DNA of 63,819 nucleotides, counting the filler, from Hyphochytrium catenoides (Eukaryota > Protista > Hyphochytriomycota): NCBI GenBank assembly GCA_900088475.1. It is 12 parts of 12 records of this genome, joined end to end, with 100 filler letters (N's around TTAATTAATTAA, not from the genome) between each part and the next. Parts side by side here need not be neighbours in the genome. Positions count along the whole stretch, not along the records: positions 1 to 19,164 come from FLMG01000092.1; positions 19,265 to 27,001 come from FLMG01001999.1; positions 27,102 to 28,687 come from FLMG01002558.1; positions 28,788 to 31,683 come from FLMG01003397.1; positions 31,784 to 33,029 come from FLMG01004057.1; positions 33,130 to 46,124 come from FLMG01002616.1; positions 46,225 to 48,410 come from FLMG01001839.1; positions 48,511 to 52,167 come from FLMG01002357.1; 4 more parts are not named here. The stretch is one strand, 5' to 3'. Below the pieces are notes generated by a model. The model did not search any database. It saw only the letters and a program-made list of their open reading frames with translations, and was not told the origin of the DNA. The translations under genes were made by a program, and so were the position numbers. Shown in pieces: positions 1 through 63,819 of this stretch (its first letter is position 1; every line of letters begins with the position of its first letter).

Positions 1-54
1 CCCTAACCCGCTCCCTAACCCGCTCCCTAACCCGCTCCCTAACCCTAACCCGCT
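1..54 (-). repeat. Left telomere, distal near-perfect 12-nt repeat (CCCTAACCCGCT)n
   Basis: Window begins with three perfect CCCTAACCCGCT units (1-36), a lone CCCTAA (37-42), then another unit. C-rich strand is at the 5' end, as expected for a left chromosome end. Confidence 0.9.
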
Positions 55-1295
55 TCCCTAACCCGCTGCCCTAACCCGCTGCCCCTAACACTCTGCCTAA
101 CCCGCTGCCCTAACACCCTGCCCCTAACACCCTGCCCTAACCCGCTGCCCTAACACCCTGCGTAATATGCTGCCCTAAACCGCTACCCTAAACCGCTGCC
201 CTAACCCGCTGCCCTAAACCGCTGCCCTTAACCGTTGCCCCTAACCTTTGCCCTACCGCTGCCCTAATCCGCTGCCCTAAACCGCTGCCCTAAACCCCTG
301 CTCTACCCTGCTGCCACTGCTTCCCTTATCCGCTGCCCTTACCCTCTGCCCTAACCCACTGCCCTACCCACTGCCCTAAACCGCTGCACTAACCCACTGC
401 CCTAAACCGCTACCGCCACTGCCCTCATCCGCTACCCTTACCCGCTGCCCTAAACCGCTGCTTTAACCTGCTGCCACCGCTGCCCTCATCCGCTGCCCTT
501 ACCCTCTGCTCACCCGCTACCCTAATCTGCTGCCCTAGCCTGCTGACCAAATCCGCTGCCCTAACGCGATGCCTTAACCCAATGCCCTAACCCATTGCCC
601 TAACCGTAACCCTCTGCAGTTTATCTCATCCCCGCTTTCTTACTACCGTTAAGCTGTTTTCGCTGCCCTAGCCCTAACCCTGCCCTACCCGCTGTCCTAA
701 CCCCCTGCCCTATCCCGCTGCCCTAACCCGCTGCCTAACCGGCTGCCTAACGCGCTGCCCTAACCCGCTGCCCCTAACACCTGCCCTAACACCCTGCGCT
801 AATCCGCTGCCCTAAACTGCTACCCTAAACCGCTGCACTAACCCACTGCCCTAAACCGCTGCCCTAACCCGCTGCCCCTAACCTCTGCCCTAATCCGCTG
901 CCCTAAACCGCTGCCCTAAACCGCTGTTCTAACCTGCTGCCACCGCTTGCTTCCCTTATCCGCTGCCCTTACCCTCTGCCCTAACCCACTGCCCTACTCA
1001 CTGCCCTAAACCCCTGCACTAACCCACTGTCCTAAACCCCTACCGCCACTGCCCTCATCCGCTACCCTTACCCGCTGCCCTAAACCGCTGCTCTAACCTG
1101 CTGCCACCGCTGCCCTCATCCGCTGCCCTTACCCTCTGCTCTAACCCGCTGCCCTAATCTGCTGCCCTAACCTGCTGACCAAATCCGCTGCCCTAACGCG
1201 ATGCCTTAACCCAATGCCCTAACCCATTGCCCTAACCGTAACCCTCTGCCGTTTATCTCATCGCTGCTTTCTTTCTACGGTTAAGCTGTTTTCCT
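55..1295 (-). repeat. Degenerate telomere-variant repeats (consensus 13-mer CCCTAACCCGCTG) with a ~632-bp higher-order duplication
   Basis: Tandem variants CCCTAAACCGCTG, CCCTAACCCACTG and CCCTTACCCTCTG. The diagnostic block ...CTAACGCGATGCCTTAACCCAATG...GTTAAGCTGTTTT occurs twice, 632 bp apart. Confidence 0.9.
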
Positions 1296-2219
1296 ATTCC
1301 ACAGCGGTTGCCGTTTAGCTAACCGGCATCGCTTTTATAAGCCCACGCTATACCAAAGCCCTCCTCCCCCGGCTGTAACCTTCGACCATATCCCCGCTGC
1401 CATAGTCCGCTCCCGTGACCAACATCCATAACCTCCTGTCATAACCCTAATGCCCTCTATATCATACCCTTGGTCACTTAACTCGTTTGCTCTTGTTCTA
1501 CATGCTTCTTACTCCTAATCCAGTACTCACAATTTTCGGTCTCCTCGCTCCTACTTCCGCGCTTTGCTTCAGTATGCTTAATCTCGCGAACTGCGTGTTC
1601 TGTATGAATCCTTGCTGGTGCTCTCTCTTCCTTGCTCTTCCTGTTTCTTACTCGCCTGGTTAGCCATTGCTCACCCATTCTCTTTCCTAGCCTTGAATGC
1701 TCTTCAGATCGCCGCTACATACCTACTACCCCTACTCGAAGATCTCCCTTCGTCACTTCTGTATCCCTTCCCCCGAGCTCTGTCCTCTGTACAATTCTTC
1801 TTGGTGCTCTTTGCCTCGTTCGCTAATAATCTTCATCACCTTCTTGTATCCCTGTAATCAAATGCATTTCCATTATCTTCCTTCTCTAACATATTACTCT
1901 TTGTTGATTACTCCTACTTACCCGCCTAACCCTCTAAACTGCTCCCTTTCGGGACAAGTTCTCGTCCGCGTGAATTTTTTGCTCCTGCCTAGATGCTTAT
2001 CACTCCTTTTCTAGCATTTTACACTTGTCACTTATTGCTACTTCCCTTCCCCTGCTTCGCTCTGCTTATTCTCACCAATTTCGTCCTTTGTACCACCCCT
2101 TTTCTGATATGCTCCCTCTCCCTTGCTCTTCTTCTATTTCTCTTTTTCTTCCACATCGGAACTGCACTTCTCATTCCCTTTCTTAATCCTTTTAGTCATT
2201 AACGTCCGTCGGGTTGACT

Positions 2220-3230
2220 CTTTTGCTCATATATATAGGCTTCTCACTCTTTCTCCGATATCTCACCTTCTTGTCGTTCACCCCACTTCCCGGTGCCTGC
2301 TTCACTCTGCACGTTCTCGCAAAATCCATCATGTGCGCCATTCTTTCTAATATTCTTGTTAGGGCTAGTCCCTTGATGTTCGTCTTTATCTCTCTTTCCT
2401 ATAGCTAGCATCTTCTGCTCTCAGACTCGGTTTCCTAACCTCTAAAATTCACCTTTGGTTATTTTCCGTCCGTTTGACTCATTTGCTCCTGTCGTAGACG
2501 CTTAATTTTCAGATTTTACTTTGTTTTTTCCTCTCATTGACTGTTTTGCTCTGCTTTACATGCCTTTCACTACCCGTACTTGTGTCACCTTGTTGTCCCT
2601 CACTCCTACTTGTATCTATGCCGCAGGCAAAGAAAAAGGCGGCAGTAGAGGAATATCAGCGAGGCCGACGCATATAACATGTTCCGGGCTTTGGTTTAGT
2701 AAGGGAGAAAGATGACAGACCCCTTTCTTTCGTTGTTCCTTCTTCTACTCTGGGAAAAAAATGTATACTCATGCATCCCCTGCCTCTCTTCGCTTTCTGT
2801 GTAACGTCCTTCCCAAGGGACAAGCGTCACGCACCTGGGCCGAAGATGACTGGAGGAAGAAGAGAGGGCAGATGGAGTGTCGCCCTACAGAAAGAAATAT
2901 ACGAATTTGGAGGGAGAAAAAAAGGAAAAAGAGAGGAGGGGGCTGCATCGTCAATTGGTTCTCTCTCTCTACTAACGCGATTTTCTTTATTTGCTAGAAC
3001 TAGAACTCGTGATTCTCTGCACCCTCACACAATTTTATAAGCGATAGAGAGACAAGAGAGGAAAGACGTCAAGGAGCAGCACCCGAAAGAGCTAGAAAAT
3101 AGAGAAATAGAAAGGAAGAGAGAGGACATCCCAGCAATTCCTGAGGGTATCGTTAGAATCAAGTCACTACCGATTAGGGTTACTCATCCCTTACGCGTCT
3201 GTTTTTCTGCCTGCAGAAGGTTCGTATATG
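2220..3230 (+). repeat. Subtelomeric element, left copy (homologous to the reverse complement of 61140-62050)
   Basis: Colinear anchors shared with the right end, e.g. CAGGCAAAGAAAA, CTCTCTTCGCTTTCT, GATAGAGAGACAAGAGAG(G)AAAGAC, GGTATC(G/C)TTAGAA and a TATATA...GATATCTC segment. Confidence 0.7.
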
Positions 3231-3856
3231 CAAGAGCGTCCTTCTCTGTGTTGGCTCTCCCCTAATCTAGTCTCTAAATCTGTCCATCAGATTCTTTCTC
3301 GAACCTCTTCATTGTCAAAAAAAAAACATAGTCGGAAGAAGAACATGACTATATACGATGGAGATTGTAAAATGAGCTAAAGAGTTGTGCCAATTCAGAA
3401 GTGAAGGGGACTGAGGGATGCTAGAACTTTAGCACTAAGATACATTACACAGAACAAAGAAAGGGTGATGTAGGAAAGCCGCTGCAAGAGACAAAGTGAG
3501 ATAAGGGGGCATGTGGAGGTTGAGTATCACTTTGGGAGGTGGGAGCGATAGAAAAGGAGCCAGATTAGATAAGAATGCCAGACTATATGAGAAGGATGCT
3601 ACTGCAGATCGCGCTAACAGACACACAAGGGGAGCCATGCAGAGAGAGGAGCGGGTACGTAAACTGAAGATCTCCCAAACAAATGTAAGAAGAAAATAGA
3701 GTGATTGTCCACGAGGACAAAACAAAAAAAGGTAGAGAATGAGAGACTGAAGGAATGGAGGGACGGGCTGGAGACGCTTGAGCAGGAATAGGAAAATGAA
3801 CAGCGGTCAAGAAGGTGAGGCAGTCCCCTAATCATTGAGAATATATATAGGGGGAG

Positions 3857-4050
3857 CGAGTGAAAGAGGAAAAAGAGAAAGCAGCAAGAGTGATGCAGGG
3901 GAGAGGCCAGATAAAGCGACAGAAAGGAAACGGTGACAAATAGAAGTTAGTGAAGCGACGAGTGAAAGAGGAAAAAGAGAAAACAGAAAGAGTGATGGAG
4001 AGAGAGGCCAAATAAAGCTACAGAAAGGAAGCGGCGACAGAAGTTAGTGA
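3857..4050 (+). repeat. ~100-bp tandem duplication
   Basis: CGAGTGAAAGAGGAAAAAGAGAAA...AGAAGTTAGTGAA occurs twice in tandem with scattered substitutions. Confidence 0.85.
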
Positions 4051-4335
4051 ACCTATCTAAACGGTGATCGTAGCTACAAGGAAAGAAGGAAGGGATAGAA
4101 TAGGCTAAGTAAGGGCAGAAAGCCTGCCCGGAAAGAAAGGGAGAGGTAGGGTTGTTTTAGCCCCTAAGAGAAGAGAGGACACAAACAGAAGGTTATTAGG
4201 AGACCAGGATCGGGCACTCTCCAGTCCGATCGCATCCTATAGCTAAGTACTTTCCAGAATTAGTACCAGCGACGACTACTTGCAAGGTAGAATTCTTCGC
4301 TGGACTCAAAATTGAGGAACTCTTTCCAGGCCAGG

Positions 4336-4529
4336 TGGTTGAATATCTTGGGGGGATATTAGGTTTTCCTGGAGCGGTTAGAGGATGGGGCTGACCTCGG
4401 GCCTCAGTCTCAGATTTGCTCGGTCAGCCACCATCAGCCTCTGCCGCCTGCCCAGACTTTGACACAGCGGCAACGGAGAGGGGAGGCACAGCTGACTGCA
4501 CCTATTCGGCGCAGCAGGAACAGTCAACG
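4336..4529 (-). mobile_element. Short (~190 bp) LTR-like repeat, copy 1, preceded by a polypurine tract
   Basis: Closely matches 15049-15246. On the minus strand it reads GGAAAGGGAGGGGGGG-CGTTGACTG...ATTCAACCA, i.e. a PPT plus decayed TGTTGA...TCAACA termini. Confidence 0.6.
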
Positions 4530-7500
4530 CCCCCCCTCCCTTTCCTCGCTGCGCCCCACGTACATTAGAAGAGAGAGTACGAAACTATTTTGTAGTCGTG
4601 GCGGTAAGGAGTACCCAGTTCTTGTTAGTAAGCTTAGTCTTTGTGATTTAGTCGTAGAGTTATGACAGGTCGGCGATTAGTAACGGGCCAAGAGCCTCCT
4701 TCCGCTTGACCCAGCTAGGCGGCAAGGAGAGCTCCCAGGCTAGAAGAAAGGTGTTATATATGTGTATCTCACTGGACGCTCGACTATAGTATGCTGAGTT
4801 ACGAGGAGCTGGCACATCTATCTCTTGGCACGCGCCCTACTACAAGCAGCTGAACAGGAGAAGAAGGAGCTCAAGCAGGAAGGCATCCTATCTCTGCCTC
4901 CTTGTCCCTTCTGGTTTTCCCTTTTCCTCGCCAAAGTTGCATTTTCCTTCTCCCCTTTTCTTTATAGAATCCGCTCCACGGACGGCGGTCGGTCCAGTAA
5001 ACATGACTTCTTGGCGATAAGCTTTGTTGAAAAATAAATGTCCTTGTCATCACCTCCACTTATTTTCAACCGCGAAGCGTTTTGTCTGGGCCGGGGCCGG
5101 CACACTGAAATGGCGACATAGCTAAACCTGCTTACTCTCTTCTTACATGTGATATGGACCTTTGCTTTCCTCGATTAAGATAGCATCTGTGTTTTATTTT
5201 CGAACCAAAACTGCACTAGTATCTGCGACTACGTCTCCTCTCTATGGTGCAAACTTTCATTGTCTCCCGCCTATCGACCTCCATGTTCCCGTCACGTTCT
5301 CACTATGTCTTCTATCCCTTCACCTCCTTCTTCCTCCCTTCCTCCTCTCTCTTTTCCTGCTTGTCGGCCTCTTCCCTTTCTTCATTCCTCAATTCATTCA
5401 CTCTGCCAGGAAGCATGATGTATGCGCCTTGCTTGGGTAACAATGGAGACACAGGGCCTTTACCTCGTCTGTTCTTCCTTATACCGTTGCACTCTCTCTC
5501 TCGCTTCGACTTCTTTCTCCGTCCCTCCGAAAAAGTCAACGTGCCAAGCGGCAATGGACGGGGATTAAGATGACGAGAGAATGAAGGGGAGAAAGGTCCG
5601 GTACTTCTTTATCAAAAGAAAACGAACAGAAAGGGAGAGAGAGAGTCCATCATCAAGTTCTTTCCTCTTTTTGAATTGTTCTTTCGCTTTGCGGTTTCTG
5701 CAGCCAACGAATATCAATGTTTCGGCATTGCCTTTCATTATCTTATAGGGGACAAGTAGCTAAAGACCCCCTTAGTTGGGGAACAGACGCTAACCGATTC
5801 CTGATAAGCTGCTGCCCAGTGGAACGTGGGGAGAAAGACCCCCAAAGCAGCAGTGAAGAGCAACGCAGGTTGGCGACGAGAACAACGTTAAAGGAACCAT
5901 TGCGTCGGGATAAGGAAGAGCAAAATAAACGGGACCAAACCCACTTCTTCTTTGGCTTGAGCCCTCAGCGTCGTCAGCGCTACTCCTGCAGAGTTCATAT
6001 GAAGCGTGACAGCCAAGGATTGCCGTGTCTTGTCAAAAACAGACGCAATCTCAGTTTCCATAACCGGTCTCGGTTGCGTCTCAGCATAATCAACAGTCAG
6101 GAGTGTCAAAGATGTAACAGCGTCCTGCCTGTGGTCATGAGAATTGCCAAGAATCGCCAACCAGCTCTGAATGCACTCTTCGACGACGCCCTGTGACGCT
6201 ACTAACACCTCGTCCTCCGTGTAGCACAGTGTGTGTACCATCCTCGTATAGCTGCTCACCAACTCGTCGTGCAGATCCTGCCCATTCTCTGCTTCAAAGG
6301 GAGAAAGCTCAGGGGTGCTCAGATCACTGCCAATAGTTGTCTCTCGGCAGAGTAGGCCAAACAACCCTCCCAGCAACCATCTTTTAGAACCTGTGAGTGC
6401 GTGTGGGTCCCTTGGTCATTCTTTTTGCAGGCCTCACAGATGTCAGCGCCTCGCACTCAAGGCAACAAGAGTATTCTCTTCCGGGGATGGATGTCATGCC
6501 GCAGCCCTGCAAGCCACAGAGTGTATTCCACGCTGGCTGATCAGGTCCTTTATATAAGCTCGTCGGCTCCAGTTGTACTGAAGACTTAGTTCTAAATATG
6601 CCACAGCTGCCGCGTTGCAGATGATGGACCCACAGGCGGATTACGGGGAGGCTTACGCCTTGTCATTTTAACGTTGACTACCTCTGGAGGAGAGGGCGTA
6701 GCAGCATCACTGAAGGGTTCCCCCTCCGAACTTTTTGGCTCCTCGCCAACCGCCTCAGGGTTAGGGTTAGGGACCGGCATAAGTTTCCTCATCCCCAAGT
6801 CAGGAGACCAAGGACACAGACCCCTTACCCTATTAGAGACAATAATAAAATAACTAACCGCCAACCTGTGGACACCCGGGATCTTCCGATGGCATTAAAG
6901 CGTTCTCGGAAGTAACCTAGTGTGTGCAATGAACGACGGAATCTGCAGACTGATTTCTGAACATCCCGCAGAGTCCTCCCGATATCGGCCGACAGTAGTA
7001 GCACCTGTTCGCAAAGTAGAAGCCGCAGTAGGATTCAATGCGGAGTCCATTTTAGGGCCCAGGACAGCAGTTGGCCTTGGGAAAGCCTCCGACACAGCTA
7101 GGAATGGGGCCACAGAAATATCTAATACTCTACTACTGATACGGGTAGCTGCTGCCCAGGACCGAGGGCATTCTGCCCTTGCTTCGAAGGAGATTCATTC
7201 CCCGAAAGCCCCTCGTGGGATGCGGTTGTTAGTGGCGCTGCAATGCTGACTTCAATCGGATGGTTCGATGGTGCTAATTCTGTTCTCTGGTGGGAATCGG
7301 GTACGAGATAGGTGATGATCGAATATACGGCGCAAGGGGCTACACACTCGGTTTACCTTGGCGGTGAATTGAAAGGCGCGGTCGCATCTGCCGTTAAAAG
7401 AAGATACGTGTCACTTGAAGCCTTGTAAACAGCGTGATGAACAGCGTCTATGCAATCCCCGACACTCAAGCCCCGTCTCAAGGAGCTGCTCAGCCCGTTA

Positions 7501-8806
7501 GCAGCAGCACTGCAGAAATCCACGCATTGGTTTCTTGAGCCAGGTTTCCGCGTTCAGAGATTGGCGACAAATGAAATCCTCTGCTACCAAACTCAAGTTT
7601 GGACTTTCTTAATGTGAAAGTTGACGAGTGAAAGACGATGGAGATTCTCTGACGGCGGCGGGGTCTATTTAGGTCTTCTTTGCCTAGGGGATGGTTATGA
7701 TGCTTGTGGCTCTTTTCCATTACTTCCGCTTTCTGAAGCTCTTCCCAAGACTGGACCGAAGAAGAAGTCAAACAGCAAGTCCGATACGGTGAAATGATGA
7801 CTGAAAGCGGAAGTCTGGGGCTAAATGGCACTCATTTCGCCGCACCACACCCAAACTGATGGACGGACCGAATGAAGCAGTCGCACTTTGGAGCGTGGAG
7901 CACATGCTCGGGGTCATGTCAATAATAACATGGACATTGGGATGAACGATGAACAACAACAGCTGTTTTGTCATTAACAAAGCTAACTCACAGCTCGACA
8001 GAACCCTTCTTCTCTAAAAACTTGACACAGAACAGTAGCACGACGAGTACCACTGGAAGTCTATTGCACCCCAACGGACGGCGCTGACAGCCTTTAGAAA
8101 GTTTCACACGCGACTTTTCGGATGTACCCTAAAACGTCCGTGCGCGGGACAACTTACTACGTAGCTCAACAGGACCAGGCTACTCACTCACCAACAACAA
8201 GCGCCGCAGAATAGAGAGGTCTCCCCACCAGCCACCGACTTGGTATTGCTGAAAACCACGGCACTACTGACGTCCCATTAGAAATGGCCAGGGTCCAAAA
8301 TAGATAAAGAGGACCTTCTGTCCGTAGGCCTGTCACAGTGATAAATTGTGTTATCTCCTCTACGGCATATCGGGTCTCCTTCTCCCAAATCTACCGGCGC
8401 TCGCTTTCAGCCTTCTTCCATGTCTCTCTAAAATAGTCCCTCTCACCACCCAAGGACCATCAACAAGACCCTCCGACCACGCCGCCACTAACTGAGTGAA
8501 ATGAGGGTCATGATGAAGGGAGTATGAAGCTGAAAGCATCCTACCAGATATCGTATGATGATCAGAGGCCATCGACACATCTAGTATTGTTTTGTCTTGG
8601 GAGCCAAAGGGCATGCAACCACATGCTGATAATGTGTTAGTTGTAGGTGGCTTTTAGGCACAGCCTTGCAACCTGCTGCACCTCAGGACAGAAGGAGGAG
8701 GAGTCTGGGTACATAGCAAGGGAAACAGTTTAAGCAAACACTCCCTTTTTGAGTACTTTAATGCGTTACTACTAGTAGCTGGTTCAGTTTATCATGCTTT
8801 AATCAA

Positions 8807-10339
8807 TTATGCGTCAAAAGATCTGCTGGAAGATTGTCGAGACAATGCCGAATTACTCAAAAGGAGTGCAGTCCAGTCCTCTGGGTCTCTAATATTACTC
8901 GTTGGTATGACGTCTTCTATGCCGGCGGGACGTTGGACTGCTGCTGATTGGGGTGGAGATGGCGGCCTTAGTTGACTTCTTTGTGCTGCCCTGGCGTTCC
9001 AGACTTCTGCATTCCATGAGCCAATGGAGACAGGAAGAACGTCGCGGACTGGCCAAGTGTCTGGCAAGCTATCTTGGAGCGCTGCTGGCAAAGAATGTGA
9101 GAAGAAGGAAGATCGTAGAGGAAGCGCGCGTTCTAGTCCTGCACCCGCAGCAGATCTGAGTACAGAGCCACCACGAAGTAGCGGAGAAGAGGACAAAAGA
9201 GGCTGCGTAGAAGTAGCGAGAACAGGAGCTGAGAGTTCGTGAGTAGGAAGAGCGTCTTCGGGCAAGACTCCAGAACCCCAAGAGTCAAGCGGGACACCAG
9301 GCGCTCTATCACCAGCACCAATAAGAGCAGAGGCAACAGAGGACGAGGGAGAGGAGAGGAAGGAAGGCCATTGCTGCTCCCTATTATATACACCATTTGC
9401 AAAGGGCGACTGCATCCGAGAAAGGCGTGAGCTCGCACCAATGACAGCAGGAGGACGAGCTGCATGTGCTGCATGGGGTTCAGCGTGCTGGGTAAGTTGC
9501 GCTGCAAGTAATTGAGCGTAACTCCGACCATTGAGCGACGACACCTGTTGGGAGTCCGATTGCTCCAAAGACTGGACGGGAACATCATCGGAAACCGATG
9601 AAAAAGAAGATGAGCCTTCATTTGGAGTAGCAGAGGTCAAAGAAGACGAAGAAAGAGGCCGCCGACGCCGTCCAGCACTGCGACGGCGGTTCGCGCCTCC
9701 TGTTCTGGCCAAAGGTAGTGTAGATCCTCTATGAGAGTTGTTGTGGTCGTTGTTCCCTCCCAAAGGTCTGTTCGGTCTTGCTCCACTGTCATGTCCATGA
9801 TGGCGGGTTACTAAGGCACTTTTCCCGCTCGAAGAAAAGGGAAGTCTCCGTCGATGGTGATGGTGTTCTCTGGCAGTATACTTTGGAAGCGGCTCACGGG
9901 CAGTAGTATAATGCGAGGAAAGGTCCTCCTCTGCTCCTTGGGAGGTTCGTCCTTCCTCCACCAGTAGTAGTAGTGCTTTCTCATTGACCTTGGTATCGAA
10001 AGATGGTAATTGCCCACTGTCGTCGGTTTGGTGGTGGCCTTTGGGACCAAGGAGCAGCAGGTGAGAAGACCATGATGGCCCGGAGTCACTCTTACCCCCA
10101 GGACGAGGAGAAGACAAGGGGAAGGGATTAGCATCTTCGAGAGGCGCCGCCAGTAAAGAGGAAGGAGGAGACTGAGGAGAAGGCGAGCTAGACCTAGCAA
10201 CCACCATTACAGTGAAGACGAGATTGGAGCTGCTCAAAATGAGCAGCCAGCATAGTAGATTAGAGATGAAGCGTCTTGATCTCTGGCTGAACGAAATCAA
10301 GGAGGAGGACGAAATCTGTCCTTCATTTCTTGTCAGCAT
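8807..10339 (-). CDS. Hypothetical intronless Ser/Pro/His-rich, probably disordered protein (510 aa)
   Basis: Long stop-free ORF from ATG to TAA with non-microsatellite composition. One hydrophobic stretch near the N-terminus; no recognisable domain. Confidence 0.5.
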   Translation of the reverse strand: MLTRNEGQISSSSLISFSQRSRRFISNLLCWLLILSSSNLVFTVMVVARSSSPSPQSPPSSLLAAPLEDANPFPLSSPRPGGKSDSGPSWSSHLLLLGPKGHHQTDDSGQLPSFDTKVNEKALLLLVEEGRTSQGAEEDLSSHYTTAREPLPKYTAREHHHHRRRLPFSSSGKSALVTRHHGHDSGARPNRPLGGNNDHNNSHRGSTLPLARTGGANRRRSAGRRRRPLSSSSLTSATPNEGSSSFSSVSDDVPVQSLEQSDSQQVSSLNGRSYAQLLAAQLTQHAEPHAAHAARPPAVIGASSRLSRMQSPFANGVYNREQQWPSFLSSPSSSVASALIGAGDRAPGVPLDSWGSGVLPEDALPTHELSAPVLATSTQPLLSSSPLLRGGSVLRSAAGAGLERALPLRSSFFSHSLPAALQDSLPDTWPVRDVLPVSIGSWNAEVWNARAAQRSQLRPPSPPQSAAVQRPAGIEDVIPTSNIRDPEDWTALLLSNSALSRQSSSRSFDA

Positions 10340-10914
10340 GACTTAACGCTAGGGTTAGTCTTTTTGGCCTAACCGAATACAAACAACCAATCTTGTTGGG
10401 GTTCAGATGTCCCGTGATGAGGGCAGCAGAAAATGAGTTCTGATGGTGCCTGTGAGCCTTGAAAGAACGTTTGTGTGATTGAGCAAGTTACTTCGTACTT
10501 GCTAGTCGAATGTGTTGTCCACCTTCATATCCTGTTAGCCGTCGCATCGTCACTTACTAAGTTAGGGTTAATATGGCAAGGAGATGCAAAAGGGAGGAGG
10601 AAAGGGAAGGAAGAAAGAAAAGGAAAGAAGGAAGCAGGAGGGAAGGAAGCAGATCGGGAAATAGTAGAAGAGATTCTTAGTAGAGGAGGTAAACACCATG
10701 CAACATCATCATCACAGGCCTTGTACCACCACTACTATGATACAAGACTGCATTCCCTCCTATTGACCGCCACCCCAAAGTGAGAATCTTTGTAAAAGCA
10801 GAAAAGAAAACCAGCGAGGGCCAGACGAAGAAGGCGGTGGAAGAGATCAAGATGCAACGCAACCGAAAGAGAAGACCGAACGTGTGGTTGTCATAAACAA
10901 AGCAACAAAGGATA

Positions 10915-10977
10915 GGGGAAAAAAGAGAGAGAAAAGGAGAGAGAAAGGAAGAGAGAGAGAGAGAGAGAAAGAGAGAA

Positions 10978-11030
<53 letters not shown>

Positions 11031-11085
11031 AAAGATGGAGGAGACAAAGGCAGAGAGAGGGGGCGAGGACAAGAGAGAGAGAAGA
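10915..11085. repeat. (GA)n microsatellite
   Basis: Long imperfect GA dinucleotide run. It generates the spurious SLSL/RERE ORFs in the track. Confidence 0.9.
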
Positions 11086-15246: not shown

Positions 15247-15299
15247 GAAGGAAATAGCGATGAGTATGTAAATCCTTACCGACCCGCCTAACTAATCGC

Positions 15300-38905: not shown

Positions 38906-38964
38906 GTTGTTCGACGGCTTTGTCAGTCATCATCGAGACCTAAGAAATAAAAGGAAAAGAGACG

Positions 38965-53202: not shown

Positions 53203-53237
<35 letters not shown>

Positions 53238-53520
53238 CTCATAATTTCTTTCTCTTTCCCTATCTCTCTGCTCGCTTCAGTTCGTCATTAACCACCAGAC
53301 TTCTCCTCTGACCTCGCGGCAGAAGCTGATCCTGACGATGCCACTGGCCGCGACTTAGGAATCGGCTTTTTTAAGGTGGAAAGAGAGGAAGTGGCCGCTC
53401 CTAAGTTGAGCAAGGCGAGCGGATCCGACTCGGCCAGTGTCCTCTCGTGAGCCTTGGAAGCCTCCAAGAGCTCCTTCAGCTCAGTTACGGCCTCTTCCTG
53501 AAGCTGAGGGATAAGCGACA
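52290..53520 (-). CDS. Exon fragments of a charged protein, possibly the RTF1 (Paf1 complex) C-terminal region
   Basis: Exon-like segments lie between GA microsatellites. ANPFVRRKTRPKVL resembles the (D/N)PFxRR motif of RTF1. No Plus3 domain is visible and both sides are bounded by gaps. Confidence 0.35.
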
Positions 53521-53989
53521 TGAGTACAAGAGAACAAAGAGAGAGAGAGGCAGAGAGAGAGAGAGAAGAAGAGAGCGAAAGGGAGAGAGAGCAACAGAAA
53601 GGGAGAGAAAGAGAGGGAGAGAAAGAAAGGGAGAGAGAGAGGGAGAGAAAGAAAGGGAGAGAGAGAGGGAGAGAAAGAAAGGGAGAGAGAGCAACAGAAA
53701 GGGAGAGAGAGAGGGAGAGAAAGAAAGGGAGAGAGAGAGGGAGAGAAACAAAGGGAGAGAGAGAGAGAGAGAAAGAGAAAAGAGAGAAAAAAAAGAAANN
53801 NNNNNNNNNNNNNNNNNNNNNNNNNNNNNNNNNNNNNNNNNNTTAATTAATTAANNNNNNNNNNNNNNNNNNNNNNNNNNNNNNNNNNNNNNNNNNNNGA
53901 GAGAGAGAAAGAAAGAAAGAAAGAAAAGAGAGACAAGTAAGCAAGAGAAAAGCGCCGAGATAGAGAGGAGAGGAAATCGCGTGTAAGGT

Positions 53990-54521
53990 CAACGAAGAGA
54001 AGTGTCACAAGAGAGAGGCCCACTTGACGTCATAGCTCGAGAAAGGAAAGAGAGAAAGAGAAGCGCCCCGCGGGAGAGAGAAGGGAGAGCGACGAAAAAC
54101 AGGAGACAGAAAGAGAGAGAGAGTGAAAGAGAGAGAGAGAGAGAAGAGTGATAATGGGGGCACCTCGTCTCGCTTATGACTTTCTCCTGCAACTGTTCCA
54201 ACGCCTTCAGATCGCTCCTTCTCGCGTGGCAGCGGGCGAGAAGAGAGAGAAAGGCGGGAGAAGGATGAAATGATTTGAACTGAAGAGAGAAACAGGTTAG
54301 AAAGAGGGAAAGAGAAAGAAACAAGGAATATAGAGAGAAAAGAGCACAAAGGAAGAGAGAAAGGTCAGCGCGGGAGAGGAAAAGGAGAGACGGGGAGAGT
54401 GAACGAAGGAAAGCGAGTCACTACGTGTAAGTATGCTAAGAAATACCAGGAACCAAGACAGAGGGAAGAGAGAGAGAAAGACAGAATATGAGAAGAGAGG
54501 ACAGAAGGGACAAGAGAGAGA

Positions 54522-54574
<53 letters not shown>

Positions 54575-55233
54575 AGAGAGAGAGAGAGAGGAGAACAAGA
54601 AGCGGGTAGTCAAACAGACTAGACCTAAAGAGAGAGAAGAGAAAATACTACCAGAGCCACAAACCGTGGGGAGACGTGCGGAGAGAGAGGAGCGGTGAGA
54701 ACGAATAGTAACGCCGCAGAGAAAGGGACTTATTCTTCTCCCCCCCCTTTCTCTCTCTCTCTCTTTCCATCTTTCTCTGTTTCTCACCTGGGATGCGAGA
54801 GAGAAGAGCTCAATGACAGCTTCAGGGCTGACAGCAGGGCTCTCCACTCCCAGTTCCATCACTTCCAACAGCGTCTCCTCCCTCACGGGAAGATCTTCGT
54901 CTTCTCTTTCCTGCCTCTCTTTTTCTCTCTCTGTTCTCTTTCCTTCTCTCTTTCCTTCTCTCTCGGTTTCCTTATCTGTCTCTCTGGCANNNNNNNNNNN
55001 NNNNNNNNNNNNNNNNNNNNNNNNNNNNNNNNNNNNNNNNNNNNNNNNNNNNNNNNNGAGAAAGAGAGAGAGAGAGAGAGAGAGAGAACGAGAGAGACTA
55101 TAAAGGTACAGGATCCTTGCCCTTTCATAGATAACTAATGCACAGGACGGACATCCGTGAAGGAAGAGAACAAAGAAGGGCGTCTCCTACGGAGCAAAAG
55201 AGCGAACAAGGGAACCAAAGAAGAGGAGAGAGG

Positions 55234-55271
<38 letters not shown>

Positions 55272-55665
55272 AGTTCACCGATGTTCTCTCTTGAGCATCT
55301 GCAGAACTTGCTCCAGTCCGTCCGCGTTGAGCCTGGCACCTGAGGGAAGATCGAGCACAAGAGCGAGGAGCTGATGGAGGAGAAGCTGATCTCCTTTCTC
55401 TCTCCCCGCCCGCAGCATCAGAGAGAGAAGAGTGCCCTCGTGATGCTGCACTGTCAATGATAACAGAGGGTCCGCCCTGAAGAGAGAAAAGAGAGAGAGA
55501 AAGAGAAGGAGAGAGAGAGGCGAGACAGAGGAGCGAGAGATGGTCAGAGAGGGAGAGAATGAAAAGAAAGGGAACAGAGGGAGAAGTTGACGAGAGAGAG
55601 AGGAAGGAGAGGAGAAGAGAGCGAGCAGAAGAGAAGAGAGCGAGGAGAAGAAAGAAAGAAAAAGA

Positions 55666-55700
<35 letters not shown>

Positions 55701-56501
55701 TGAATTAGCTCATGTGAAGGCAGGTAAATGAAAGGAAGGAAGGGAAAGCGAAGGGGCAAGGGAGACCACGAACTGGAAGAGATACAACGAGAGACAGGAC
55801 AAATCTGAGAGAAAAGAAAGAGAAAGAGAGAGAGAGAGAAGGGCAACTGAGGGAGAAAGAAAATCTAGGCACGAAAGCTAAAAGGACCAGAAACGAAAGG
55901 CCGCACTTTTCCATTACCTGCGCGTCTCTCTCTCTCTCTTTCCTTTCTCTTCTCTCTTCTTCCGTGAAGAGCGAGACTGGCCCGTCGTCTCTCTCTGAAG
56001 GAAGGGGAGAAGCGCCTTTGTCAGCCTCTCTCCCTCTCTCACAGCTCCGGCCCCCAGGCACTCCTCCAGCAGCCTTTCACACCGAGAGAGGAAGAAGACT
56101 GGCGGTGTAGGGAGAGAAGAAGAGGGAGAGAGAGCAGAAGAAGAAGAGAGAGAAGAAGAGAAAGAGAGAGGAGAGGAATATCCCTGAAGCTGCTGGAGAA
56201 GGACGTCCACTTCTTTTCTAAGGTGCGAGTGATCGACGTCATCCTGAAGAAAGAAAGGCTCTTCGGTGGCCAGCTCCTTTCTCTCTCTCTCTTCTTCTCT
56301 CTCTCTCTTGCCAGGGGCTTCAGAGAAAGAGGGAGAGGAGGAGAAGAGAACAGGAGAGAAAGAAGAAAAGGAAGAGAACTGCTCCCATCGTCCTCTAGGA
56401 GGGGAGGGAGAGGAGAGGCGAGAGAGGGAGAAAGGAAGAGAAGTCCGCCGGCCAACGGCGAGTCTGGGCCGAGTGAGAATTGTTCTGCTTAACCGCCTCA
56501 T
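53990..56501 (-). CDS. Multi-exon helical-repeat protein with a mitochondrial-presequence-like N-terminus (PPR-like?)
   Basis: MRRLSRTILTRPRLAVGRRTSL... is R/S/L-rich with no acidic residues. Downstream helical exons near 55280-55480, 54790-54885 and 54180-54280 are bounded by GT-AG. Confidence 0.45.
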
Positions 56502-58500
56502 CCTTTGCTCTTTGCTCTATGACAGAGAGAAAGGAAGAGAGAGAGAGAGAGAGCGAGAGAGAGAGGGGAAGAGAGAGAGAAGTGAGAGAGAGACGGCAGG
56601 ATAGTGGGAGGAGAGGAGATGGTGGAGAGTGTGGGCCTGTTGTGCTAGACTTCAGCAGGTTAATCAAATATCCGCCGGCGGCGAGCGAGAGAAAGAGACG
56701 AGGGGTAGAGAGAGAGAGAGAGAGAGAGAGAGGATGAGCAAGAGAGAGAGGCTGCGAAGATGCCTATTGTGAGGCCATTTCCTAGACAAAGGGGCAGCTC
56801 CAGCTCGTCAGACGATGCTTTGTCTCTCTCCCTCTCTCTCACCTTCTCCCCTCCGCTGTTTTACTCTTCTCTCTCTCTCTTTCTCTCTCCTTTTCTCTCT
56901 CTCTCTCTCTCCCTCCCTCNNNNNNNNNNNNNNNNNNNNNNNNNNNNNNNNNNNNNNNNNNNNTTAATTAATTAANNNNNNNNNNNNNNNNNNNNNNNNN
57001 NNNNNNNNNNNNNNNNNNNAGATCCGCTTAGTCTCAGGAGAGGGAGATGGACGGAAAGAGGGGAGTTAGAGGGAGAAAGAGTGCAGGCGAAGAAGAGAAA
57101 GAGGGAGAATAAAGTGAAAGAGAGAAAGAGAGGTTGTAACTTGAAGAGAGGTTGAGACAAAAGAAGAGAGAGTGAAGCCTGGGATAGCAGCCGAAGGCGA
57201 GAACAGGAGGATCGCCTTATAGACCTAAGTAGAAGTCAGAGGAAAGGGTGAGGCAACAGCCGTCCGGGAAGAGAGAAGAGAATGCGGAGAGAGAGGTAAA
57301 GAGGTAAGAGGGAGAGAGAGATAAAGAGGAGAGAGAGGGGAGCGAGAGAGAGAGAAAAGAGAGAGAGGCAACGAAGGGGCAATGAAGAAGGAGGTGAGAC
57401 ATAGGGAGAGAGAATAGGGAGAGATAAGAGAAAGAGAAAGACCAAAGTATGACGATGTTCGCAAGCAGCATCTTTGTCCCTCGCCTGTCTCTTACCCGGT
57501 CTCCGTGTGCCGTAGAGACGAGCTGTCCACGTGATCGGGCAGGAGGTTCGCCAGATCTCTGGCGGAGAACATCGACATGACGCCTGTTCTTCCCTCAACG
57601 GTCCTCTGTGGGCCTCTCTCTCTCGCTCCCGCTCTCTCTCTCTCTTAAGACTGGGGTACTTCTACACTTTCGCTCTCCGTTTCCCCGTCCTCCTCAAAAG
57701 ACTGTCTCTGGTCTGTCTGGAGCTAGTAGTTTGCCTTGATCCTCTGCGTCTCTGACCGTCAGAGCTGATACTGAACGTAAGCCAGCTGTGAGAGTCACTG
57801 ATGAGTGTCTTGAATGGGAGAAGAAGGTCTTGAGGCTGTCGGGTAGTTAGCCGCTGGGCCCTGGCATTGCAAGGAGTCCTATGTCCTATGGCTGCTGTCC
57901 TTCTCTCTCTCTCTCTCTCTCTTTGACCCGCTGCTCTCTCTCTTACGCGCTGCTCTCCTCTCTCGTGCGCGTTCTCTCTCTCTCACTCGCTCGCTCTCGC
58001 TCTCGCTCTCTCTCGCACTCTCTCGCGCTCTCTCGCTCTCTCTCGCTCTCTCCCCAATCCATCCCCTCTCTTGACCTTTCTTTTTCATAGTTCTTTCCTA
58101 TCTCTTCCCTTGCCAGAGATAGATCGCTGATCTCTCTTCTCCACTCTGTCTCACCGGTCAGTAGCAATATCACCTGCTTTGACAGTGAACTTCTTTACCC
58201 TTGGGCCCCAATCTAAAACCACTCTGTCTAGTGTCTGGAAGGAAGAAAGGAGGGGCTAACGGTCATATTGTCCGCATTCCACTTCCTCTTCGTTCATCTC
58301 TTTTCTCTCTCTCTCNNNNNNNNNNNNNNNNNNNNNNNNNNNNNNNNNNNNNNNNNNNNTTAATTAATTAANNNNNNNNNNNNNNNNNNNNNNNNNNNNN
58401 NNNNNNNNNNNNNNNATCCTATTTCTCGTACTCAGGAAGAACCTACTAGGAGAGGAAATTAAGAGGCTTATAGTTGACTGAACTGTGCACCAAAGTCCTG

Positions 58501-58532
58501 CTAGCCCTAACCCCCTGCTAACCCTAACCTAG
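58501..58532 (-). repeat. Short interstitial telomere-like tract
   Basis: CTAGCCCTAACCCCCTGCTAACCCTAACCTAG resembles the variant repeats near 665-710. Confidence 0.5.
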
Positions 58533-58567
58533 AAGGAAGAATTAGCTAACCAATATGACCTTCTTCT

Positions 58568-58611
<44 letters not shown>

Positions 58612-58837
58612 CTCCCTTCTCTCTCCGTCGCTCTTTCCACCTCTCATTTTTGCTCTTTCGGTCTCTGTCTCTCGCTTTCCTTCTGTCTCTTCTTCTTTCC
58701 CATTTCTCCTCTCTCTCCTATTTCTCTTCCGGAGGATTTGCTTGAGGATGGAGTTCGAGGATATGTATCTTCCCTTCACTGTCTCACAATCATGATCAGA
58801 ATCATTGTGAGAAGACGGCATTGTAATGGGAGGACGT

Positions 58838-59700
58838 CCATACCCGGCTACCCGCGTCGGCCCCCTCCTTGAGCGAGCCGGGCACGTGGCTTGCCGTACA
58901 TTAAACGCCATGGGTAATCTCGAGAAATGAAAGCAGACGAAGAATGACTTGGGCAGATGGGTTGTGGGATGCGCGACGCCGGTTCCACGCAATTGCCTAC
59001 ACTTTGTCGATAAAGAAGCGCAGGTGTAGGTACCGCTCACCTGGCAACTGGTGCCAGGAAGGTCCCCATGCCAGAAGGGCACAAGCCGCGCAAGAGAGCT
59101 CCCGAATGTTGATCCCAAAGTCCGAGCTACCCGCCGCAATATAATACCAGAGCGCTCCTCCGAGAGGTGAACCGAATCTGCAAGAACTCCTTGCGGTGAG
59201 GATTGAGCGCGGCCAGTCCTTCATTGCTGGCATCCATGAACTTTACCACGTCTGGGCCTGGGCCGGGTGAATGTGGCGAAGCTCACTGTATCCAGGTACC
59301 ACGGGAAAGGATTTGCTCGAACCATTCCGGATCGCGCACGGCCTCCAGAGGAAGAAGGGCTCCGGACCTGTAAAAGAGGCCATTGTGCTAGAAAGACCCT
59401 GCACAAACGCTCGACCCGCCGGGGAGCACGTCATCACACGGTGAAGGCTACTCAGCAACTGCTGTATATCGCGCTGGCGTACTCGATGGGGAGGCTTGGC
59501 GAGAAGCAGACGGTTCAACCCTTTAGTTCAAACTCTATGACTTTATCTCTTGACTCCTACCCCTTTAGCGCCAAAAGGGCAGCCATCAAAGGTAAGTTTA
59601 GGGTTGCCTCTTGCAGCTCCTCACATAGCATTAGGAAGAAGGCTAATTAGCTCTAGCAAGGTAGCATCCTTAGGAGGCTTTAGCTATAATCCATGAGCTC
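58838..59700 (-). mobile_element. Degenerate DIRS/Ngaro (tyrosine-recombinase retrotransposon) RT-RNase H fragment
   Basis: Across frameshifts: QQLLSSLHRVMTC...RAFVQ, FMDASNEGL, INIRELSCAACALLAWGPSW, LRFFID..AIAW, NPSAQVILRLL and HVPG...ADAGSRVW. These are the DAS / INxxE / IDN / HxPG-ADxxSR motifs of DIRS-type RNase H. Confidence 0.8.
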
Positions 59701-61139
59701 AAGAAGCACTTCACCACATCAGAAATGATTTGTGCAGAGGACGGAGTTCGTTGAGAATAATGAGAGTAGAACAGGAGCTAGCGGGGAAGTAGGAGTAAGG
59801 GACCACTGAAGTCCATCAATGGTTTAGAGCCAGTGAACTCCCTCTAGTAGTAGAGACGACGACCTTCTTTGGCACGTGTTTGGTCTTGATCTGAAACATA
59901 AAAGGTTTGCAGGTGAGTGCATTGTCAATCTCCGTCCGGATGACCCCAAGGACATGGAAGAAGACATTACCTAAAAAGGATGTTGAGGAGAATTGACAGT
60001 AGCAGATATGGCAAGTAGGGTAGCGCAAGGAGAACATAAGCTGGGAGGCACAGTGATGAACAGAGTAGATATGGTGCTTAGTAGAGAACCTAAGAACTAA
60101 TTCAGTCAATTGAGAAGTTCCAGAACAAGACTAAGAACTCACGCAATCATTCCTCAAAGGACTTAGCGCCGCTCGCCAGCAGGCACCCGAGGCGTTTAAT
60201 TAACGACCAAGGCGAAATGTTAAAGGCTAATGCTGAGATGCATGTACGACAGGAACGAAAGAGTCCTGCGGATGGAAATAACACAGGCGGTAATTTTCAA
60301 ATTAGGAAAGATAGTGGGCAGGCAGTTGCCGGAACACAGAAAGACAGAAAGACAGATAAAGACGACGATAAAGGGAGAGGAAGAGCATCCAGATTGGTAG
60401 GATTAGGGTCCTGTGCATGCAGATGTCTGACACTTGTCGTTCACTGCTTTTCATGCCAAGCCTCTGGACTGCGTTCTCCATGCTATTATCTTTCGCAGGA
60501 AAAGGATGGAGTCGAACATAAAAGAATCAGTGGAAGAGAACAAGGTATGATGTGGATCTGTGCCGGAAGCCGCAGTCTGGTGGCCTTGTGTTCTGACAAG
60601 AGCTGCAAAGGGAGAACGTCTTTCTCTAGCGTCTTCGGACAGAGCCATAGCATCAGAGGGAGGTGAGGGACGAGAGGAAAAGCAGGAACATAGACAGCTT
60701 AGGCAGGAATCCTGCCAGCAGTTAATCGGGAAGGCGGATAGGGATCTCTCTTTCCCAGAGGACTTCGGGCACCGGAGGTCGAACTGGGACCCAGTCTACC
60801 ATCTGCGATATCTTCAGTTGCTTTTGGATTGAACCCCACCATCTCACCCTCCTCTGCAATGGAAGAATAAGCGTAAAGAATGACAACAATAGCCAAAAGA
60901 GCAAGGGAGAAGATAAGAAATGAGAGAGACATCAAGAGAAAGGGAGAACCAGTGCATTGATGCAGGACCCAGAGTGAGAAAAAAACGAAGAGAAAATATA
61001 AAAGGATAAATATGTGCTAGGGTTAGGACCAGCCAAAGGAAAAGAGCCACAGAAGAGCTGTGAGGGGGGAAGAAGAAAAGGGAGAAGGGAGAACATAGAA
61101 GCTCTTCTCGCCTATGAAGACAAGGCCGTGTAGTGTTTC

Positions 61140-62050
61140 TCTTCTGTCGTCAAACTGCTTAAGAGATACGAGCTCTTGTTATTTCATGTCTTGCTGATGA
61201 TGCAGATTCTTCTCTTCTAAGGATACCAATCAGAAGACNNNNNNNNNNNNNNNNNNNNNNNNNNNNNNNNNNNNNNNNNNNNNNNNNNNNNNNNNCTCTA
61301 TGTCTCTCTCTATGTCTCTCTCTATGTCTCTCTCTGTTTCTCCTCTGTTTCTCTATTGTTCTGGCTTTATCAGGTGCGTCCTCTGTGATGTCTTTCTCTC
61401 TTGTCTCTCTATCATCCACTACATTAAGAGGTAATGCAGATGATCGCGATATTTATGCGAGGTAGACACAGGAATTGGACAAAACCAGTGGAGGAAGAGA
61501 GAGACAATGGATGATGGATACCCAAAACTCTCTCCCTCGCTTCTTTCTGTACTCCTTTATTTCTATGTCCCATTATCTGGTCTTTTCAACAGCGGCACTT
61601 CATCTGTCTTCCTTCACTTAGGTTTTTCATCCGTCGTCCCACTTCCTTGACTTTGGGCACCGCGGAGGACCCGCCAAAGAAAGCGAAGAGAGAGAATACG
61701 AGAGTAGTAGATGAGAAACAAAGAGATGCAAAGGTAGATGGAAGAACAAAAGAGATAATGATCTGCCACCTCCCCTCCCTTATCCGATCAAGCAGAGGGC
61801 AAGCTTTATTACTCTACTCACGCTTCTGCTCCCATACCTCTTTTCTTTGCCTGACGGGGAAATAGAAGTGGGATGGTAGAACTACAGGAACTAAGAGAGA
61901 ACACGAAGGAGAGAAAGAGGTAGGGAGAAAGTGAAAGCAGACAGTAAGGGTGAGAAGGGGAAGACACCTGGAGGGATAGAGACAAGAGACAGGGAGAGAT
62001 ATCAGAAAGAATTAGAGAGGGTTGATGAAAGGCATATATAGTGCATTGAA
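61140..62050 (-). repeat. Subtelomeric element, right copy
   Basis: Reverse complement is colinear with 2220-3230 and has the same polarity relative to its telomere. Confidence 0.7.
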
Positions 62051-63324
62051 GGGAAGTGTTTTCCATGTTAAAGCAAGCACACAAGCTACTCAAGATCCAT
62101 AAAAAGAAAGTGAGCGACATTATCTAGGTCTTAACTTCGGGTGGCCGGGTTATGAGGGTGAAGTGATCCAAAGGACGTTCTCTTTTTGAAGACTATAGTC
62201 TCAAAGTTCTTACTAGCCAGCACAGGCCGTTTTAGAGAAGCAGATTATAAGGAAGAAGAGAGGTAAAGAACTATATTCTATCATCGAGGATAGGAGAGAG
62301 ACAGAAGAGTCAAGTGGATAGAAATAGTGACCCTTAGCACCATCTATTTGGACGAAGAATATACCCATCTGAAGAGCGTAGGAGGTTTAGAGGTAGAGGA
62401 TAATGCAAGGATTAAAGTAGAGATGTGGAAAAAGTATGAACGATAAAGACCATGCAAGCACTGGGTTACAAAAGAGTTGGAAGAAGCAGGCTTAAGAGCA
62501 ACGATTGAAAAAGAAACCGGCACAGGATGGGAATACGAGAAGCCCCCAGAAAGGATCAAGATAAAAGAGGCAGAAAATACTGGACAGAACTTCATAAGAG
62601 TTTGATGCCGAAGAGATACTTCTTGATCAACAAGGTAGGTGGATATATTGGCAGGATCAAGCAAAGGCCAGATGTTGTATGGCCTGGAAAAAGCACACCG
62701 AGAGACTTGTAGCTTTGGTTGCAAAGAGGGAACAAATTAGAGAAATTACTACACAAAGATAAAAGAAGAGGGTACGCAGGGAATTTCATAAACGAGAGGA
62801 AAGGGCAAGCATAAGGACAGGCATTGATAGGGGCATTTAAGAGGAAGTGAGTTAATCTAAGAGGCAAAAGGGCATAGGGAGTTTTGATAGAATACAAGTA
62901 AGAGAGAGGAAACGTAAAACAGAGGGAGGGGATGCAGATTAGTTGATTCGAGAGAGAGCAGTTAGTAATCGAGAAAGCAATAAAACTAAACTTGATAATG
63001 GTGAATTAAATGTTAGAAGAGATGTTGGGTAGGGCAGCTAGTTAGGAAAAAGGCAGCCGGCGAGGGGCAGCGGGGAAAGAAAAGGAGCAGCAGGGTAGTG
63101 GAAAGGGAGTGGGAAAGGGAATGCTTTAGTGAGCGAGTTCGAGAGAGGGTAAGTGAATGGGTTGATGGGAGGCTCAAGGCAGCAGCAGATGATGAAAAGG
63201 ACACCGCGAAAAGATAAAGAGCAGCGGGTAATAAAGGGCAGCAGGCTGGGGAGCGAGATAGGCTACGGTAAAGTGAGCCGGTTTTTGAGTGGCATCGTCA
63301 GTGGCATAGTGACCGGCATAGCGA

Positions 63325-63737
63325 GGGGGTAGGGAAGGGCAGCGGTTAAGGAAGGGCAGCGGTTTAGGACAGCGGTTTAGGACAGCGGGTTAGGGCAGGG
63401 GGCAAGGGCCGGGGGCTAGGGCAGCGGGTTAGGGCTACGGTTAAGGAAGGGCAGCTTAGGGTTAGGACAGTGGTTGAGGACAGTGGGTTAGGGCAGCGGG
63501 TAAGGGCAGCGGGTTAGCGCAGCGGGTAAGGAAGCGCGGCGTTTTAGGACGTTTAAGCAGAGCGGGTTAGGGTTAGGTTTTTGGGCAGTGGTTTGTGGCA
63601 GCGGTTTAAGGTAATGCAGTAATTTAGGGCAGTGTGTTAGTGCAGCGTGTTAGCGCAGGTGTTAGTGCAACAGGTTAGTGCAGTATGCTATTGCAGCATA
63701 TTAGGGAGCGGGTTCGGCAGCATGTTAGTGCAGCAGG
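63325..63737 (+). repeat. Degenerate telomere-variant repeats (consensus TTAGGGCAGCGGG)
   Basis: Variants TTAGGGCAGCGGG, TTAGGACAGCGG and TTAGTGCAGC. Confidence 0.85.
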
Positions 63738-63819
63738 TTAGGGAGCGGGTTAGGGAGCGGGTTAGGGAGCGGGTTAGGGAGCGGGTTAGGGAGCGGATTA
63801 GGGTTAGGGTGCGGGTTAG
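63738..63819 (+). repeat. Right telomere, distal (TTAGGGAGCGGG)n
   Basis: Four perfect units (63738-63785), then TTAGGGAGCGGA, TTAGGG, TTAGGGTGCGGG and TTAG at the very end. G-rich strand is at the 3' end. Confidence 0.9.

Follow-up and report, generated by a model that had tools for sequence, protein, structure and literature searches.

Layout of the window and its telomeric ends

The stretch of DNA analysed here (the window, 63,819 nt, from the Hyphochytrium catenoides assembly GCA_900088475.1) consists of 15 contigs with 62,524 called bases, separated by 11 linkers and three sized N gaps. The same telomeric repeat caps both ends. From the left telomere the window passes through a relic zone, the gene core and a second relic zone to the right telomere; about 40% of the sequence is repeat or relic. 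The window may well be a real, complete linear nuclear chromosome, somewhat longer than 63 kb and from the small end of a moderately numerous karyotype, a reading whose chances we put at about even. It is supported by the polarity and gradient of the end repeats, the symmetric layout, the inverted element shared by the two arms, the single trough in G+C content (GC) and four linkers that lie within genes.

The 12-nt unit CCCTAACCCGCT occurs 46 times in the window with at most one mismatch, against 0.14 matches expected by chance (mean of shuffles). Thirty-three of these matches are on the plus strand at the left end (1-1176), 12 on the minus strand at the right end (63384-63803), and one is internal (58505). 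At the left end, three perfect units are followed by a bare CCCTAA and then by about 95 degenerate 13-mer units, which extend to about position 1237. At the right end the same elements occur in mirror-image order: degenerate 13-mers begin at about 63333 and lead to four perfect 12-mers (63744-63791), after which come a unit with one mismatch and, close to the terminus, a bare hexamer. Both ends therefore display the same gradient, perfect distally (with an occasional bare CCCTAA) and degenerate proximally, and the G-rich strand runs 5'-3' towards each end of the window. In this respect the original prediction, which had described the same repeat at both ends in the correct polarity with degenerate repeats inward, was accurate. 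In a self-comparison, the proximal arrays of the two ends proved just about 65-77% alike, and they are therefore not a single repeat assembled twice. The predicted subtelomeric element common to both arms is also present, but short (Table 1).

Homogeneous distal units and decayed proximal units are the usual pattern at ends maintained by telomerase. A telomerase with a 12-nt template unit would maintain the ends of the window, and would account for the units being perfect distally and decayed proximally, and for the bare CCCTAA slips, which would fit template slippage at the internal CCC. The 12-nt repeat was not found as a telomere repeat in the literature searched (main texts of open papers; motif tables are often placed in supplements); judged by title and opening of the abstract, papers with text matching one phase or a portion of the unit did not concern telomeres. 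It is apparently undescribed, and this holds under all four readings of the window considered here. Yeasts supply most known examples of long telomere units. The repeat shares with those of budding yeasts, and with the TTAGGG-type telomeres of many protists, a G-rich 3' strand with a TTAGGG core, but is distinguished by its 12-nt unit, TTAGGGAGCGGG, in a non-yeast. Protist repeats of the common type are given, in the available parts of the respective sources, as AACCCT (10.64898/2026.07.16.738196) and TAACCCT (10.64898/2026.06.25.734631). Whatever the joins prove, the 12-nt repeat provides a handle for finding the telomerase RNA and for counting chromosome ends.

Two interstitial telomere-like relics (58497-58529 and 6761-6772, both on the plus strand) are each oriented opposite to the nearer telomere; past fusion or healing events could have left them as scars, or they could be due to chance. 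When metagenomes were scanned for three tandem CCCTAACCCGCT units, a single contig (L001) was retrieved, in which about five perfect copies of the 12-mer (1204-1270) lie internally amid other CCCTAA-type runs, apparently in an intron of a GC-rich eukaryote. With the repeat internal among such runs in a GC-rich gene, this contig was ruled out as the telomere of a relative. The same scan of viral contigs gave no matches.

Table 1. Coordinates of the features of the window.
Feature	Position	Strand	Remarks
Left telomere	1..1237	+	Perfect 12-mer CCCTAACCCGCT at 1-36, passing into degenerate 13-mers; C-rich strand 5' on plus strand
Left subtelomeric zone	1263..19164		Repeats and retroelement relics; no recognisable host gene
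Element common to both arms, inverted	3043..3129 and 61413-61324	+ (first copy)	81% over 91 nt; 2.4-3.1 kb from each end
Relic of a broken reverse transcriptase, non-LTR type (LTR, long terminal repeat)	12034..14343	+	RVT_1 at 12521-12841, E 2e-6, below cut-off
3' end of chromodomain-bearing Ty3/gypsy element	18588..19164	+	SH3_Tf2-1 and Chromo (Pfam)
Sized N gaps	18517, 54990, 61239		Lengths 70, 68 and 57 nt
Linkers (11)	Starts 19165, 27002, 28688, 31684, 33030, 46125, 48411, 52168, 53799, 56920, 58316		100 bp each, unsized; artefacts, not DNA
Myosin gene with introns	21735..26377	-	Motor domain and IQ (Pfam); 5' end approximate
Putative membrane-protein gene	28129..29768	+	Open reading frame (ORF) at 28788 without start; donor-ended exon left of linker 28688 (weak bridge)
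Five-exon unknown gene	32097..34125	+	Last intron holds linker 33030; no Pfam match
CBM1 and GH5 (mannanase-like) gene, intronless	34726..36969	-	Pfam; hydrophobic N-terminus
Low-GC trough, 500 bp (candidate centromere)	38451..38950		30% GC, -4.7 standard deviations (SD); intergenic, inside one 13-kb contig
ALG3 alpha-1,3-mannosyltransferase gene, multi-exon	41228..45333	-	Three exons above Pfam cut-off; apparently complete
PX-domain gene	46618..48314	+	Pfam; possible splicing over linker 48411 from a canonical donor near 48256 (weak bridge)
RNA polymerase III subunit RPC25 gene, multi-exon	49476..51250	+	Rbc25 domain above cut-off; 3' end approximate
Multi-exon unknown gene (or two tandem genes)	51853..57578	-	Spans linkers 56920, 53799 and 52168; in frame over gap 54990
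Right subtelomeric zone	58416..63332		No recognisable gene; C-rich telomere-like relic 58497-58529 at its start
Right telomere	63333..63819	-	Degenerate 13-mers, passing into perfect 12-mers (63744-63791); on plus strand, G-rich strand has its 3' side at the end

Continuity across the linkers

Each linker consists of 44 N, the core TTAATTAATTAA, which stops all six frames, and another 44 N. A similar six-frame-stop spacer serves to concatenate scaffolds into pseudogenomes, according to the available part of the source (PMC7907477), and the linker by itself is therefore no proof of adjacency; the literature search returned no paper explaining exactly this linker. The count of 11 artificial joins given in the original prediction was right for the linkers, while the three sized gaps had gone uncounted. 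Because seven of the 11 linkers adjoin sequence in the bottom decile of complexity (about two expected, more in AG-rich blocks), they suggest routine short-read contig breaks and not arbitrary concatenation; the same kind of sequence adjoins two of the three sized gaps.

Hand-built gene models bridge four of the 11 linkers well (33030, 52168, 53799 and 56920) and two weakly (28688 and 48411). Linker 33030 falls in the last intron of the five-exon gene, and the spliced model is in frame without an internal stop. The gene thus carries on in the right order and strand, as had been claimed, in a hand-fitted model. A micro-exon of 17 nt (32593-32609) is required to keep this gene in frame, and several donors near it are weak (GTCAAT, GTTCTC). 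An apparent in-frame TGA near 32790, which might have indicated a reassigned stop codon, vanished once the micro-exon was included. The minus-strand gene running from 57578 to 51853 spans three linkers, with no start or stop on each intermediate contig, and it stays in frame over the gap of 68 N at 54990 (ORF 54365-55186). Its exon phases are partly fitting and partly in need of weak donors or hidden exons. At the two weakly bridged linkers, a dangling donor to the left is paired with a plausible exon to the right.

Several points weigh against a single chromosome. Five of the linkers (19165, 27002, 31684, 46125 and 58316) are intergenic, with no bridging gene, and among them are the two that attach the telomeric arms, 19165 and 58316. 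The former lies at a likely LTR start, since the Ty3/gypsy element terminates directly at this linker in a purine tract followed by TG; the latter lies at a (TC)n run, and the small telomere-like relic at the start of the right subtelomeric zone is 80 nt away. Both are typical mis-join sites. The bridging models were fitted by hand, include some weak donors and have no Pfam match above cut-off (the 13 exons of the bridging genes gave three sub-threshold matches). In addition, the contig ends share no overlap (at most 1 nt), and the true length therefore exceeds 62.5 kb; the linkers being unsized, any one of them might conceal a large gap. The density of AG microsatellites alternates sharply between blocks (0-8 versus 91-128 bp/kb), which a chimera could also yield. 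Finally, the window may have drawn notice as an outlier.

These points bear on an alternative that we regard as possible, if rather doubtful, namely that real ends of different or much larger chromosomes were mis-joined through an LTR or a microsatellite, or that a large stretch is hidden in an unsized linker. Eleven unsized linkers of a kind resembling a concatenation spacer, the nature of the sequence at 19165 and 58316, the repetitive left arm and the alternating composition all speak for it. On the other hand, at least four linkers lie inside genes, with the parts in the right order and strand, and a mis-join would need the telomeric contig to have been picked in the right orientation too. 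The layout is moreover symmetric, and the GC profile has a single trough where a mis-join could have left several or none. One small nuclear chromosome, as in the original prediction, stands as the most likely reading, with further support from the three linkers and one sized gap inside the minus-strand gene, from the low-complexity sequence beside seven linkers and from the one low-GC trough; since the arm linkers are unbridged, the single-chromosome reading is likely, but not proven.

A single low-GC interval

The GC of the window is 0.49, and exactly one deep trough departs from it (Table 1); the next separate trough deviates by just 2.5 SD. Diatoms, Cyanidioschyzon and Plasmodium have centromeres that consist of one low-GC interval each, and low-GC pieces of 500 bp can maintain episomes in diatoms, as described in the accessible text of 10.1101/096016. 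The trough resembles these centromeres in being the one intergenic low-GC interval of its molecule, at about 30% GC over 500 bp; the likeness here is by composition alone. It is thus a candidate centromere and no more. If the window is a single chromosome, the trough at 38.5-39.0 kb would act as a short regional centromere, and the core genes would prevent loss of the molecule.

A second, weaker low-GC spot consists of about 17 tandem copies of a 17-nt TTCATC-rich unit (45827-46124) abutting linker 46125. As regards microsatellites, two blocks (31784-45300 and 52268-58315) are rich in AG/TC repeats (91-128 bp/kb, exons included) and have lower CpG and TpA ratios, while two others (19265-31683 and 46225-52167) are nearly free of them (0-7 bp/kb). 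This segmentation resembles the repeat-rich and repeat-poor segments of Eimeria.

Gene complement

Genes were recognized with Pfam profiles and their cut-offs, gene models were built by hand, and Rfam and transfer RNA (tRNA) scans were run. Eight genes have some support, three of them unknowns. The prediction of about 10 genes between the caps is therefore only partly upheld, the remaining two being doubtful ORFs (8807-10342 and 20595-21161); the introns and transposon relics it mentioned are there. Likewise present are the two core genes it named, ALG3 and RPC25. The N-terminal exon of RPC25 weakly matches three RNA polymerase III Rpc25/RPC8 sequences in PDB (E about 0.03). Among 91 further ORFs of the window, Pfam gave one sub-threshold match and none above cut-off, and no ribosomal RNA or other Rfam family, nor any tRNA, was found in the window. 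TAA, TAG and TGA all terminate genes, and the 824-codon frame of the myosin gene is open under the standard code.

The myosin gene includes a partial FYVE match below the Pfam cut-off. FYVE-bearing myosins are known, and class XXXIV also has ankyrin repeats, according to the part of PMC2375034 that was available; unlike class XXXIV, the myosin of the window contains no ankyrin repeats that could be found. For the putative membrane-protein ORF, a search of the Atlas gave no match above 0.81. The CBM1 and GH5 gene is intronless amid intron-rich genes. The best match of its GH5 domain is an unnamed protein (39% identity), followed by chytrid and myxobacterial proteins (32-38%), and the protein-cluster collection searched has no entry for it. 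Because its nearest named matches come from chytrids and myxobacteria at such identities, the gene may possibly have been acquired laterally, and its predicted domains hint at cell-wall degradation.

Phylogenetic position

In a search that took in proteins of 1326-3785 amino acids, the myosin motor is 36-46% identical to the best 120 long matches, the named ones being mostly from oomycetes, labyrinthulids, ochrophytes and Cafeteria; among 1.84 billion representatives, identity to the best 150 matches is at most 49%. A quick IQ-TREE analysis, which kept 119 of the 120 matches, placed the myosin on a long branch beside, and outside, a mainly stramenopile group of 111 rows, with no well-supported set including it. 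In a FastTree analysis of 155 rows, which kept 154 of 157 matches after rows aligning over 430 amino acids or less had been dropped, it had no supported neighbour. The ALG3 exon is uninformative on lineage: its identity is 65-78% whether the proteins compared come from animals, fungi or diatoms. No close relative was found in the protein collections searched, cluster look-ups included, and the Atlas search with the myosin gave just generic clusters. As judged from the proteins, a stramenopile or related lineage is plausible. The earlier designation as a probable stramenopile agrees with the best myosin matches, which are mostly stramenopile (36-49% identity), but goes further than the two trees, which place the myosin inside no sampled stramenopile clade.

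Copy number of the ends and size of the karyotype

Positions 1-5200 of the window were compared with the DNA contigs of three sequencing runs of one study (X1, X2 and X3), the ones among six listed runs that contain the stretch; the study is possibly the assembly's own source and is thus not independent. Matching contigs numbered 871 in X1, 397 in X2 and 144 in X3, many of them 85-99% identical to this end; a further run, X4, gave none. Like a subtelomere, the left 5.2 kb therefore has multiple copies among the organism's contigs, with many variants over 1263-5200. From the run sizes, X1 and X2 each hold about 68 million distinct 31-mers, and the genome is thus roughly 68 Mb, with ordinary gene density. 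If all chromosomes were like the window, this size would mean about 1,000 molecules and about 2,000 ends.

The original prediction had in fact proposed a karyotype of very many tiny chromosomes. In this case, a germline genome of about 68 Mb, rich in introns and transposons and not of a ciliate, would be distributed over chromosomes of about 50-100 kb (all below 100 kb), numbering several hundred to about 1,000, each with its own 12-nt-repeat telomeres and a short (500-bp) low-GC centromere. The core genes on a 64-kb molecule, the number of molecules that the genome size would then need and the clear abundance of telomere-like sequence speak for this possibility, which we nevertheless hold to be improbable. 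One scaffold cannot reveal a karyotype. In addition, about 2,000 ends would give a depth of 2,000x or more, while the summed contig depth over the terminal 174 nt is about 140-260 times the depth of near-unique contigs in X1 and about 50-90 times in X2, figures that are crude and do not represent copy number. The argument is weak: the contigs that gave the single-copy level lie within a repeated region, libraries under-represent chromosome ends, and the filter drops some contigs. As a weak hint, tens to a few hundred ends fit the depth better than about 2,000, which would make the molecule of the window a small outlier. The claim of very many tiny chromosomes is accordingly not supported. Were it nevertheless true, about 1,000 tiny chromosomes would be the most fragmented germline karyotype known, and each a natural minimal chromosome.

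If the window is instead a single chromosome, it would be among the smallest in a karyotype that numbers tens to about a hundred, and not a typical one of about 1,000 such pieces. Its small size would stem from fission and telomere healing, or from the loss of an arm.

Comparison with small chromosomes of other organisms

The nucleomorph chromosomes of cryptophytes and chlorarachniophytes have subtelomeric ribosomal DNA, are AT-rich and are gene-dense. The window is like them in size class and in having core genes, but has no terminal ribosomal DNA (no Rfam match), is not AT-rich and is gene-sparse (8-10 genes in 62.5 kb), with transposon relics and long introns; a nucleomorph origin was thus rejected. 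So was a linear virus or plasmid, given spliceosomal host genes and no viral genes among the Pfam matches.

A close precedent, which the original prediction had missed, is Galdieria sulphuraria, for which 72-73 chromosomes in 13-16 Mb are reported, the smallest contig running from telomere to telomere being 84.8 kb (10.1101/2022.10.04.510839, in the part available), with a mean chromosome size of 190.9 kb (PMC9812998, likewise). The points in common are a small linear nuclear chromosome in a non-ciliate, ordinary genes and repeated subtelomeres. Compared with the Galdieria chromosomes, the window is smaller, if real, and has a much lower gene density, long microsatellite-rich introns and both LTR and non-LTR relics; its organism differs in the genome of about 68 Mb, the presence of a myosin gene and the telomere repeat. 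On the single-chromosome reading, the window works like the small but ordinary chromosomes of Galdieria. It would then lie below the shortest complete one of these and yet carry core genes with introns in the gene core, relics of transposons and a candidate centromere. In this way it would mark how small an ordinary mitotic chromosome can be, and would serve as a compact natural model for the function of telomeres and centromere in a poorly sampled lineage. A literature search for protists whose karyotypes comprise very many small chromosomes turned up nothing that matches the window.

The macronuclear nanochromosomes of Oxytricha range from 469 bp to 66 kb and mostly carry one gene, as stated in the consulted portion of PMC3558436. 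The window approaches the top of this range and shares the telomeres at both ends and the core genes, but it differs in its 8-10 genes, in the degenerate subtelomeric repeat (1.2 kb and 0.5 kb at the two ends), in its retroelement relics (reverse transcriptase and chromo-integrase), in its GC and in the standard code. A ciliate nanochromosome was thus rejected, and the view that neither a ciliate nanochromosome nor a nucleomorph fits was correct. The minichromosomes of Trypanosoma brucei number about 100 and consist of palindromes of 177-bp repeats, with no housekeeping genes according to the available text of PMC3866873. They too are small, linear, telomere-capped nuclear molecules; the window, in contrast, has a unique gene core with RPC25 and ALG3, and no long central inverted array appeared in its self-comparison, so that a trypanosome-type minichromosome was likewise rejected.

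These comparisons also bear on the idea that the window is a real but non-standard molecule, either an accessory (B) chromosome with duplicate genes or a somatic fragment as in ciliate macronuclei. Its high proportion of repeats and relics, and a size that matches the upper limit of the Oxytricha nanochromosomes, would be in line with this. However, ALG3 and RPC25 look intact, while the T. brucei minichromosomes are described as lacking housekeeping genes; the length and degeneracy of the subtelomeres, together with the retroelement relics, imply that the ends are old and stable and not products of fresh telomere addition; and all three stop codons are used as such, with the long myosin frame open under the standard code. 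We consider this idea very unlikely, and the least probable of the four.

Subtelomeric zones

Pfam searches recognized no host gene at 1.3-19 kb or 58.4-63.3 kb. Besides the two elements listed in Table 1, the left zone contains, on the minus strand at 17578..18516, what we take from familiar motifs to be a broken copia-like reverse transcriptase/RNase H relic, with no Pfam match at E 0.01. Degenerate large inverted repeats occur among the retroelement relics at 16596-17570 and 13999-15585 (73% over 467 nt and 72% over 292 nt). Outside these zones, local partial duplications were observed at 27500-28460, one of them direct (27686-27899 with 28242-28458, 78%) and the other inverted (27502-27623 with 28016-27894, 81%).

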